From NCBI GenBank assembly GCA_017432025.1, contig JAFRJX010000004.1, positions 1,028 through 65,027 on the forward strand: a stretch of DNA of 64,000 bases, in the 5' to 3' direction. The notes under the pieces were generated by a model that saw only the letters and a program-made list of their open reading frames with translations, was not told the DNA's origin and made no database searches. Positions within the stretch are counted from its first letter, which is position 1. Every line of letters begins with the position of its first letter. The DNA is from Candidatus Saccharimonadota bacterium (GTDB lineage: Bacteria > Patescibacteriota > Saccharimonadia > Saccharimonadales > Saccharimonadaceae). The position numbers were made by a program, and so were the translations under genes. This document shows, piece after piece, positions 27,244-60,333 of the stretch.

Positions 27244-27272
27244 TTGACTTTTTTAGCAAAGTGTGCTACAAT
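27244..27272 (+). promoter_or_regulatory. Sigma-70 promoter
   Basis: TTGACT, 17 bp, TACAAT with TGTG extension. Confidence 0.75.
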
Positions 27273-27343
27273 GAATTTAAGTTAGAAAATAAAATAAACA
27301 TTCTAACAAATAACAAAAATAAACAACAAAAAAAGGAAAAATC

Positions 27344-27550
27344 ATGGCGGAAACATTAAAATTACCAAACGCAGTCGTTGACTCAGACTGGAAAGATGAT
27401 GTCGACGTAGACTACGCCATCTATGGCGGCAACGAAAAACAAGAACGCGAATACGTCTCGCAGGAACAACTCAGTAAAGAAAAGATCGATAGAATTAAAA
27501 AACGCAAAATTGGTATGGTTGCTCTCTTTAGTAGCCAAAATACAGCGTAA
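27344..27550 (+). CDS. Hypothetical 68-aa protein in its own transcription unit
   Basis: Promoter upstream, AAGGA RBS, terminator at about 27600. Confidence 0.65.
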   Translation: MAETLKLPNAVVDSDWKDDVDVDYAIYGGNEKQEREYVSQEQLSKEKIDRIKKRKIGMVALFSSQNTA

Positions 27551-27577
27551 AGGAAAAACTTCCGATGTAATATTATA

Positions 27578-27599
27578 AATTTCAAGCCATAAATTACAA
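27578..27599 (+). repeat. 22-nt motif, copy 1 (copy 2 at 59691-59712)
   Basis: AATTTCAAGCCATAAATTACAA versus AATTTCTAGCCATAAATTACAA (21/22 identical). Confidence 0.8.
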
Positions 27600-27625
27600 A
27601 AACCGAACACTTTGTTCGGTTTTTT
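27598..27625 (+). terminator. Intrinsic terminator
   Basis: AACCGAAC-acttt-GTTCGGTT followed by a T run. Confidence 0.8.
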
Positions 27626-58892: not shown

Positions 58893-59246
58893 GGGGCTGA
58901 CAAAGCTTAGACGGATCATTAACAGACATCAAGCGCGCCGATTAAATACCGTAAGTATTAATAAGTGCTAAAAACACGAAAACTGCGCATGTTATGTACA
59001 TGCCAGCTTATGCCTAATATATTCTAGGCTGGTTTCGGGCGGAGGTTCCGTAAGTCCGGAATTATCATACGACGGAAATAAGGCTGTTTAAGTAGCGAAA
59101 AATAGTTCGAAAATTTAGCTATGGCGTTCGTCAGTTTTGTTTTCTGCAGCTCACGATTTATGCCAAGACGAAACAGGAAACTATGCACGTAGAATGATGT
59201 CCACGTGGTGACTCGGACCCGGAGGCAGTATCCGGCAGCTCCACCA
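58893..59246 (+). ncRNA. ssrA: tmRNA
   Basis: GGGGCTGA 5' end, CAGCTCCACCA 3' end, tag ORF GCT...TAA at 58967-59017 (AKNTKTAHVMYMPAYA); own -10 TGTGaTATAAT. Confidence 0.95.
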
Positions 59247-59458: not shown

Positions 59459-59534
59459 GTTGTAAATAACACAACAATAATAAATTATTTATACAACAGG
59501 GGAATTATAGAGTATATGTTGTGAATAAAACAAC
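59459..59534. promoter_or_regulatory. Two copies of a 17-bp palindromic operator-like site, GTTGT-N7-ACAAC
   Basis: GTTGTAAATAACACAAC (59459-59475) and GTTGTGAATAAAACAAC (59518-59534), 15/17 identical, upstream of the promoter at 59555. Confidence 0.6.
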
Positions 59535-59554: not shown

Positions 59555-59583
59555 TTGCATTTTTCATGGATCTGTGCTACCAT
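59555..59583 (+). promoter_or_regulatory. Sigma-70 promoter
   Basis: TTGCAT, 17 bp, TACCAT with TGTG extension. Confidence 0.7.
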
Positions 59584-59589
59584 GAAAAC

Positions 59590-59950
59590 AGTCGAGATGA
59601 CTAAAATAAAAACTAAAAATAAAAGGAAAAAATCATGAAGAGAACACGCGCAAAACCTAAATCACCATAGCATTTGGCGGGCGAAAAGGTAATTTCTAGC
59701 CATAAATTACAACATAGGAATTACCTAGAGCTCCGCCAAAGGCGTCGAGCGCGCAGTCAAATCTTTCATTAGTACATTAGAAAAACATAAACAAGAGTGA
59801 AAGAAAACGGCAGCAAGGACAATGCTTCACTATACGTGAAGCGGTCAAAGGGAATAAGCGGATCAGGGTTGTGGCCAATAGTTGTGATTTAAGCGCCAGA
59901 TAACCCCCCGCTTTCCCCCATATTAAAGGATAGGGAAAAACTCTTGGGGG
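59590..59950 (+). ncRNA. Candidate ~350-nt highly structured RNA containing an 11-codon mini-ORF
   Basis: Many stems found by manual pairing (see findings); RBS + ATG 59635 gives MKRTRAKPKSP-stop (59670). Confidence 0.5.
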
Positions 59951-59979
59951 ATGAACTAGTAAGTGATATAATAAGAATC

Positions 59980-60333
59980 ATGAAGCATAAACGTGTTGTC
60001 ATGATTGTTAGCATTGTAGGACTCGCAGCTTTAATTGCAATACTAACACTAACTACGCCGACGGACACAGGTCCTCTCGGTGTTTTATTATTTTTTACAA
60101 CACTTTATATCTCTGTATTTGGTATTACGTCTTTAATCATGCAAGCCTTCTATAGGCTTGCTTTTAAACGTGATAATTTCAGAAACAAAGACTACCTTTA
60201 CGCGGCAGTCTTTTCGTTTGGCCCGATCATGCTCCTCATGGCCCGTTCTTTTGGCGCTATTAGTATCTGGACCGTCGCTTTGATCATTTTTTTCATATTT
60301 TTAGCCGAATTTTTAGTGGCGAAACGCATCTAA
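59980..60333 (+). CDS. Hypothetical multi-TM membrane protein
   Basis: TGaTATAAT 7 nt before ATG 59980; hydrophobic ORF. Confidence 0.75.
   Translation: MKHKRVVMIVSIVGLAALIAILTLTTPTDTGPLGVLLFFTTLYISVFGITSLIMQAFYRLAFKRDNFRNKDYLYAAVFSFGPIMLLMARSFGAISIWTVALIIFFIFLAEFLVAKRI

Follow-up and report, generated by a model that had tools for sequence, protein, structure and literature searches.

Several small RNAs (sRNAs) of bacteria, among them RNAIII of Staphylococcus aureus, SgrS/SgrT and SR1/SR1P, are dual-function base-pairing RNAs. The initiation factor gene infC is autoregulated by IF3 via an AUU start codon. To our knowledge, no RNA controlling the synthesis of an essential initiation factor has been reported for any bacterium; in particular, we know of no sRNA regulator of infA, the gene of initiation factor IF-1, and full-text searches of the literature found none acting on it. 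Here we study an RNA encoded at positions 59590-59920, on the plus strand, of a stretch of 64,000 nucleotides (nt), called the window, from a 0.86 Mb genome of Candidatus Nanosyncoccus (Saccharibacteria), a genus whose genomes come from gut and rumen metagenomes. The reading that we favour, with roughly one chance in two of being right, is that of a trans-acting antisense RNA that would occlude the start of infA, built on an older RNA found throughout the order, and in which a ribosome-loaded mini-open reading frame (mini-ORF) would modulate structure or stability.

Like RNAIII, SgrS and SR1, the RNA of the window is long, folds into several hairpins, has its own promoter and a short ORF, and exposes a loop that is here predicted to pair with the translation-initiation region of its target. 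Unlike these RNAs, it shows no conserved peptide sequence, the mark of a dual-function sRNA, and only the act of translation can matter; a single dominant seed of 15 nt is directed at the gene of a translation factor, and an older module ties the molecule to an operon with a VirD4-like ATPase. There is no sequence or structural homology with this group. As in CopA/CopT of plasmid R1 and in OxyS-fhlA, a stable stem bears the seed in its loop, and the target is an unstructured ribosome-binding region. Contrary to these systems, the RNA is chromosomal and trans-encoded, on another contig than its target, and it addresses the extreme 5' end of the mRNA instead of the Shine-Dalgarno (SD) sequence. 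As in the leader-peptide attenuators ermC, cat, trpL and pyrL, an SD-led mini-ORF ends beside a helix of which the 3' strand can pair elsewhere; unlike in these, the competing helices control neither a terminator nor a helix sequestering an SD, and the gene that follows lacks an SD and has a separate promoter. If true, the proposal shares with infC a dedicated post-transcriptional control at the start codon of an initiation factor, but the effector would be an RNA and not the factor itself.

A conserved structured RNA

Comparison with relatives confirms that the region, about 330 nt long, is a real, conserved and structured RNA with its own promoter, not previously catalogued. Folded as a single sequence, the plus strand reaches -96.9 kcal/mol (z = -4.8), and none of 100 shuffles is as stable. 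Blastn matches to the region occur in 33 of the 36 genomes of the genus, and an exact 18-mer from its hairpin is present in more than 119 species-level genomes. Covariation was compared with controls in which the pairing partner is slid by 1-3 columns: in a MAFFT alignment of 43 sequences, over helices P1, P2, P5, P4, P6 and P7, 94.5% of the cells are paired and 215 are compensatory, versus 19-35 in the controls. When 100 distinct homologs are aligned to a covariance model (CM), 95.9% of the cells are paired, 40 of the 53 pairs are compensatory, and compensatory cells number 627, versus 49-84 in the controls.

At gathering scores, an Rfam 15 scan of the window returns RNase P, tmRNA and three tRNAs only, all outside the RNA; at E <= 10, the segment 59240-60010 and the copy from another genome (G039) yield only microRNA noise. 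The RNA belongs to none of the families of Rfam 15, be it 6S, signal recognition particle (SRP) RNA, tmRNA, RNase P, OLE, ROOL, GOLLD, raiA, riboswitches or others. These results support a new RNA family defined by covariation. An initial annotation of the window had suggested a new class of large non-coding RNA, to be checked against Rfam and in collected homologs, and this suggestion is supported: no known family matches, covariation is strong, and the hairpin is widely distributed.

Most of the pairings that it had proposed, those of P1, P2, P4, P6 and P7, lie where it placed them and covary. Helix P1 (TTTGGCGGGC, 59673-82, with GCTCCGCCAAA, 59730-40) closes the seed hairpin, which extends over 59673-59740; in the 100-sequence alignment, 93.9% of its cells are paired and 10/10 pairs are compensatory. 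Inside it, the 12-bp helix P2 (59687-59726; AGGTAATTTCTA, 59687-98, with TAGGAATTACCT, 59715-26; 98.7% of cells paired) carries a loop of 16 nt at 59699-59714, and its lower stem covaries from GGUAAUU/AAUUACC to GCUUAUU/AGUAAGC. Between 59753 and 59814, P5 (59753-57 with 59810-14; 5/5 pairs compensatory) surrounds P4 (TCTTTCATT, 59762-70, with AGTGAAAGA, 59796-804; 9/9 pairs), whose loop has the conserved motifs UUAGYACMUU and CAUAAAC. The 3' module, at 59815-59920, is made of AAGGAC, P6 (TGCTTCAC, 59823-30, with GTGAAGCG, 59836-43), the invariant GCGGUCAA, and the P7 hairpin at 59850-59917, with an AAUAGU loop and a GGAU bulge, in which GGGAA, AGCGG, GGGTT and TGGC all have partners. Two proposed pairings had to be dropped: CGCGC/GCGCG involves a part of the mini-ORF that relatives do not conserve, and the alternative pairing of TCTTTCAT with the start of the mini-ORF is lost in species where P4 has covaried.

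Across the genus, the P1/P2 hairpin is 90-100% identical, versus about 70% in the flanks. It is not coding: the frame 59674-59772 is open in this genome only, the loop has insertions and deletions of lengths not divisible by three, and every frame of the minus strand contains stops; the same evidence speaks against read-through of the mini-ORF stop into that frame. Some species have insertions of variable hairpins, up to 330 nt long, between P1 and P5, and the RNA reaches about 750 nt in some species. One such species was read, at locus L086: its insertion of 330 nt is accompanied by one promoter and no internal terminator, so that the locus encodes one RNA, and the split or tandem copies suggested by cmsearch reduce, at this single locus, to one long molecule. 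The insertion of L086 is structured and GC-richer. In seven loci (L025, L026, L030, L050, L081, L086 and L139), a distance of 300-400 nt separates the seed hairpin from the 3' part, and the mini-ORF is often missing.

Complementarity of the P2 loop to the start of infA

A 14-mer of the P2 loop recurs in a few genomes; in three, the additional copy corresponds to the infA start in reverse complement, a match that the initial annotation did not contain. The full seed, CTAGCCATAAATTAC, at 59696-59710, comprises the loop and the top 3 nt of P2 (CUAGCCAUAAAUUAC), and is fully complementary to the initial 15 nt of the infA mRNA. Its target, GUAAUUUAUGGCUAG, lies outside the window, at about 38750-38764 on contig C4 of the same genome (labeled G000). 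The infA mRNA is near-leaderless, given that only some 13 nt separate the end of its -10 box from the ATG, and the target is therefore its extreme 5' terminus: a leader of 7 nt, the AUG, and the next 5 nt, or positions -7 to +8.

The seed is kept in all of the 30 loci collected by blastn. On the side of the target, the invariant block of infA spans exactly -7 to +8 in 27/27 species, that is, precisely the complementary 15 nt; the third positions of codons 2 to 4 have conservations of 1.0, 0.96 and 0.96, versus a mean of 0.71, with 3% of such positions invariant, elsewhere in the gene. Three species with an insertion near the N-terminus of IF-1 keep GTAATTTATGGCTAGTCAAA at the start. In these species (L207, L208 and L209, from genomes G033, G016 and G014) the first 20 nt of the mRNA are unchanged, and the insertion, of 13-16 residues, comes just behind the first 4-7 codons.

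Both partners appear accessible. The P2 loop has an unpaired probability of at least 0.9 in the ensemble, the 5' end of infA is predicted to be unstructured, and the predicted energy of the duplex between loop and infA is -22.3 kcal/mol. In a comparison of 114,456 genome windows, no transcript pairs better with the loop than infA (-21.9, versus a mean of -5.6 and a standard deviation of 2.4), the only better-scoring window being the DNA strand opposite the RNA gene itself. A conserved and, by prediction, accessible seed, complementary to a translation-initiation region, is what is expected of a trans-acting sRNA and is found here, as is a target site conserved along with the seed. From complementarity, accessibility and the invariance of both partners, we infer pairing in vivo and repression of infA.

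The next-longest perfect matches of the seed in the genome are of 11 nt, some of them at other AUGGCUAG starts such as that of rpsM. Several genes that start with AUG GCU AG match 10-11 nt of the seed (UAUGGCUAG); judging from these matches they could be secondary targets, and they include the gene of ribosomal protein S13 (rpsM, contig C4, 39158).

Several side observations concern the two partners. The infA leader is very short and has no SD in the whole order, with GUAAUUU-AUG here and GUUAUAUUU-AUG in other families (loci L181-L237; about 38700-38990 on contig C4 of the window's genome), and codons 4-8 of infA (AAAAGGAAGUGAU) resemble a near-perfect Shine-Dalgarno sequence that comes after the start codon instead of before it. 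Partial copies of the seed core, of the CAUAAA type, are found in the conserved P4 loop (CAUAAACMAGA, 59787-59797) and at the end of many mini-ORFs (CCAUAA or CCAUAG; 59664-59670 here). In the copy of genome G088, the hairpin loop has no meaningful match to that genome's own infA. Two further candidates were rejected: an inner hairpin GUAAUUU/AAAUUAC hiding the seed is not kept where P2 reads GCUUAUU; and for a 'sense mimic' of the infA leader (AAGGUAAUUU), AAGG is not conserved in infA and the 5' strand of P2 covaries.

The mini-ORF and the alternative helix

Upstream of the hairpin, an A-rich and unstructured leader (59602-59634; unpaired probability about 0.9) contains the Shine-Dalgarno sequence AAGGA at 59623-27. 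It is followed by the mini-ORF MKRTRAKPKSP*, of 11 codons, at 59635-59670, whose stop codon TAG (59668-70) is two nt 5' of P1; about 250 nt of dense structure come after it, with a 3' limit near 59917. This architecture recurs: 84 of 130 homologs have an ORF with SD and ATG that ends -2 to 14 nt before P1, versus 2.8 expected from shuffled leaders, and in 61 the stop is at most 4 nt from P1, versus 1.2 expected. Some species have no such ORF; where present, its length varies from 2 to 27 codons, and the peptide sequence is neither conserved nor hydrophobic. The peptides are rich in Lys and Arg because the leader is A-rich. The last residue is P in 47 cases, K in 23 and T in 19, so that many peptides end in Pro-stop, a context of slow termination. 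Since the position of the ORF is kept while its length and sequence vary, we take translation, and not the peptide, to be what the mini-ORF conserves.

The 3' strand of P1 is also the 5' strand of another helix or pseudoknot, within 59730-59750, that pairs GCTCCGC (59730-36) with GTCGAGC (59744-50): 98% of its cells are paired, and 2/6 pairs are compensatory. It changes from GCUC/GAGC to GCUU/AAGC, and this change is kept too in a species with a 330-nt insertion between the two strands. The competition between P1 and this helix could correspond either to a switch or to a pseudoknot. A ribosome stopping 2 nt before P1 would, if anything, remodel the RNA, not the reverse: the SD and the ATG are predicted to be at least 90% unpaired, which means that the structure does not gate the translation of the mini-ORF.

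An older module shared by the order

Two covariance models were used, R1 for the full RNA and R2 for its 3' third alone, that is, the P6 hairpin, GCGGUCA and the long P7 hairpin. Matches to R1 are confined to the genus, plus one weak match elsewhere in the order. With strict speed filters, R2 is found in 81 of 301 Saccharimonadales genomes, always as a single copy, and these belong to 67 of 217 genera, and covariation supports the module order-wide as well. With R1 confined to the genus and R2 spread over the order, the RNA of the window is, as far as comparison tells, a genus-specific elaboration of an older, single-copy RNA. The order-wide layout is a strong promoter, a 5' hairpin GUAAG-(A-rich loop)-CUUAC, a linker, P6, GGUCAGUCA and P7; GCGGUCA, AAUAGU and GGAU are the invariant unpaired stretches of the module. 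Only Nanosyncoccus has the 5' hairpin, A-rich leader, SD with mini-ORF, P1/P2 hairpin and P4/P5 described here, so that the window copy bears a genus-specific 5' extension of about 230 nt carrying the anti-infA hairpin, the mini-ORF and P4/P5.

In 30/30 loci examined, the R2 match lies between comM and an operon that encodes a membrane protein and a VirD4-like ATPase. The distance from the module to the ATG of the membrane protein gene is 1-137 nt order-wide, and an SD is almost never present. A canonical intrinsic terminator follows the module in at least 14 of 28 loci of other families, and in none of Nanosyncoccus.

A second transcript and a shared palindrome

The initial annotation had also pointed to a loop motif, GCCATAAATTAC, shared with another place in the window, and a second copy is indeed found, at 27586-27597. 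It belongs to a transcript predicted on the plus strand at 27260-27625, with a look-alike promoter, a 5' hairpin, an A-rich leader with SD context, and an ORF of 68 amino acids at 27344-27550 whose product has no Pfam match. The seed of this transcript, AGCCATAAATTACAA, at 27585-99, is directly before an intrinsic terminator at 27603-25, which its AGCCAUAAAUUACAA abuts. Homologs of the locus were found in 8 of the 25 genomes of the genus searched (24 relatives and the window's own). The five listed among these eight, plus locus L175 of genome G004, all have in the 3' untranslated region (3'UTR) an anti-infA seed of 8-13 nt; its length and position vary by species, several copies are directly before a terminator, and the orientation is always antisense. 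On this evidence, the unit may be a second regulator of infA, derived from a 3'UTR.

A palindrome is common to the loci of the RNA and of infA. Upstream of the RNA promoter, at 59459-59534, two copies of GTTGT-N7-ACAAC (59459-75 and 59518-34) correspond to the operators that had been announced for this gene; they are real palindromes, and the only two matches in the 64 kb, versus 0.04 expected. Nearly all Nanosyncoccus loci of the RNA have 1-4 copies in the promoter region. The palindrome also occurs once just after the infA stop codon, in the spacer between infA and rpmJ, in at least 19 of 30 infA loci (L181-L210, near 1734-1750); in the window's own genome, the infA side has a variant with a spacer of 11 nt. 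The palindrome is a candidate for an operator, or a hairpin, common to both loci.

Proposed mechanism and rival explanations

Assuming that the complementarity is functional, the following scenario can be proposed. The RNA of Nanosyncoccus would have gained a 5' extension onto the old P6-GGUCA-P7 module. The rigid P1/P2 hairpin would display the invariant loop of 16 nt, which, with the top 3 nt of P2, would pair with the first 15 nt of the infA mRNA, block ribosome binding, and lower the synthesis of IF-1. The strong SD and the tiny ORF would load ribosomes that halt 2 nt before P1; on terminating, a ribosome would mask the 5' strand of this helix, so that P1 would open transiently and the helix 59730-36/59744-50 would be favoured. 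Ribosomes halted there could also protect the 5' end from nucleases. By either route, the activity or the lifetime of the RNA would be coupled to ongoing translation; this role of the mini-ORF is suggested by the architecture of the ORF.

Several points weigh against this scenario. Loci L031-L149 were fetched with the seed sequence, and the invariance of the seed is counted on the 30 blastn-derived loci only. Both seed and target are invariant in the genus, which leaves no room for intermolecular covariation. Families without the seed conserve the short infA leader as well, and its conservation needs no RNA. In six genomes of sister genera, the search for an antisense element against their own infA gave chance matches in coding regions only, and the 15-nt match alone has a blastn E-value of about 0.24. 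The ends, abundance and expression of the RNA are deduced here from promoters, and the terminator scan detects no intrinsic terminator for it in the window copy. Finally, the large conserved remainder (P4/P5, P6 and P7) is left without explanation.

In a different hypothesis, unlikely on the whole but deserving of attention, the RNA is a cis-acting leader of the membrane protein and VirD4-like operon, either a riboswitch or an attenuator sensing a protein or the ribosome, the hairpin being a lineage-specific accessory and the infA match having no function. The constant position of the module in the 30 loci, its proximity to the membrane protein ATG in every family examined, and the terminators that follow it in about half of the other-family loci draw a classic riboswitch layout; an upstream ORF with the mutually exclusive P1 and alternative P1 resembles an attenuator. 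However, no terminator is found in this RNA of the window or of its genus, and read-through transcripts would offer an internal AUG without SD, since the gene that follows lacks an SD and has a conserved extended -10 promoter of its own, placed for a leaderless start. Nor does the hypothesis explain why the loop is invariant, why it matches the invariant block of infA exactly, or why there is a second seed transcript. As for an independent transcription unit, the promoter of the RNA is conserved, and terminators follow the module in other families.

Regulation in cis by the 3' module and antisense action on infA are not mutually exclusive. It is possible to imagine, as something less likely still, a single RNA tying two essential processes, in which a new class of sensing leader or sRNA on the coupling-ATPase operon, an operon for host interaction in this view, would be represented by the 3' module and would have been fused in Nanosyncoccus to a ribosome-sensing mini-ORF switch and to an antisense arm directed at IF-1, the second 3'UTR seed RNA serving as backup. 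If this were true, translation-initiation capacity and the secretion machine would be tuned jointly in an ultra-small parasite. Such an RNA would be the first to regulate infA, and would provide the Candidate Phyla Radiation (CPR) with its first defined sRNA-target circuit.

A purely DNA-level explanation seems improbable to us. The 15-bp box would be the operator of a transcription factor, present at infA (+1 to +15), in the RNA gene, and near the end of the second locus, and the hairpin would be incidental. The same double-stranded sequence does occur at three loci, a box over the transcription start of infA is in a typical position for a repressor, and a separate palindrome already joins the RNA promoter region to the infA locus. 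Against this, the box is not palindromic; in the RNA gene its place is precisely the loop of a helix that compensatory changes preserve, about 105 nt into the transcript; and at the second locus it is found at the 3' end, by the terminator, with variable length and position and a constant antisense orientation.

Slightly more improbable is a housekeeping RNA that binds a protein instead of an mRNA, such as a very divergent SRP RNA or a 6S-like RNA. The 3' module is single-copy and order-wide, with invariant unpaired stretches, and the SRP models RF00169 (in the window's genome and 60 relatives) and RF01854 (in the window's genome) and the 6S model (in the window's genome) match nothing, controls being positive, so that the SRP RNA of the order is either very divergent or missing. 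But the models for SRP RNA (RF00169, RF01854) and 6S (RF00013) have no match at this locus even at E <= 10; the consensus has no GNRA-capped helix 8 hairpin with SRP loops; and its multi-branch covarying fold is not a rod of about 180 nt with a large central bubble. R2 matches in 81 of 301 genomes only, albeit under strict filters, and a placement directly before one operon is unusual for such an RNA.

The last explanation, a system akin to type I toxin-antitoxin in which RNA structure gates the synthesis of a small peptide, toxic or otherwise functional, is the switch that the initial annotation had envisaged for MKRTRAKPKSP, and we consider it very improbable: a short SD-led ORF is conserved beside a stable structure, but the peptide is variable in sequence and in length (2-27 residues), rich in Lys and Arg instead of hydrophobic, and missing in several species, its SD and ATG are unpaired, and the promoter scan listed no minus-strand promoter within 59590-59920, from which an overlapping antisense RNA would be expected.

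No description of regulatory RNAs of Saccharibacteria or of other CPR bacteria was found in Rfam or by full-text searches of the literature. These bacteria have minimal genomes with few recognisable regulators; the analysis separates an order-wide core from a genus-specific arm, and gives the latter a precise candidate target, the first 15 nt of the IF-1 mRNA. An antisense arm joined to a ribosome-loaded mini-ORF suggests a feedback loop on translation capacity, and the link to the VirD4-like ATPase operon would make the RNA a handle on epibiont physiology.

Layout of the locus

The setting of the gene is as the initial annotation had described it, with tmRNA just upstream, the ORF of 11 codons and both promoters. 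The tmRNA gene occupies 58893-59246, with a terminator at 59260-75, and an AT-rich spacer extends from there to the promoter of the RNA; comM is the upstream neighbour on the opposite strand. Adjacency to tmRNA is restricted to Nanosyncoccus and 1 of 20 other loci, so that 'downstream of tmRNA' does not define this RNA.

As read from the sequence, the promoter, at 59555-59583 on the plus strand, has a -35 box TTGCAT (59555-60), a spacer of 17 nt and an extended -10 box TGcTACCAT (59575-83). The pattern TTGnnn-N17-TGnTAnnnT is aligned in relatives, and its strict regular expression matches 74 of 130 homologs. At the predicted transcript start, the 5'-terminal hairpin P0, GTC-GAGAT-GAC (59591-59601), covaries in relatives, with variants GTCGTGAGAC, GTCCAAAAGAC, ATCGTAGGAACGAT and GTTCAAAAAGAAC; its counterpart in the order at large is the hairpin GUAAG-(A-rich loop)-CUUAC.

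Downstream, also on the plus strand, a small membrane protein of 117 amino acids (59980-60333) is the first gene of an operon that continues with a partner of 188 amino acids and a TraG/VirD4/HerA-like ATPase of 908 amino acids; this synteny is kept in more than 100 loci. Its promoter, at 59944-59972, has a -35 box TTGGGG (59944-49), a spacer of 17 nt and an extended -10 box TGaTATAAT (59964-72). Since the latter is 7 nt from the ATG at 59980, and the gene has no SD, the mRNA is probably leaderless. Both cTTGGGGG and TGATATAAT-N6-7-ATG are kept in most relatives of the genus, again with no SD, and the same spacing between -10 box and ATG is found in another family.

A last observation concerns the 3' module. 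On contig C8 of the window's genome, positions 59056-59070 are a perfect antisense, over 15 nt, of the 3' strand of P6 and GGUCAAA (59835-49), with a blastn E-value of 0.24; this match sits in the 3'UTR of rpsH, just 5' of a terminator.

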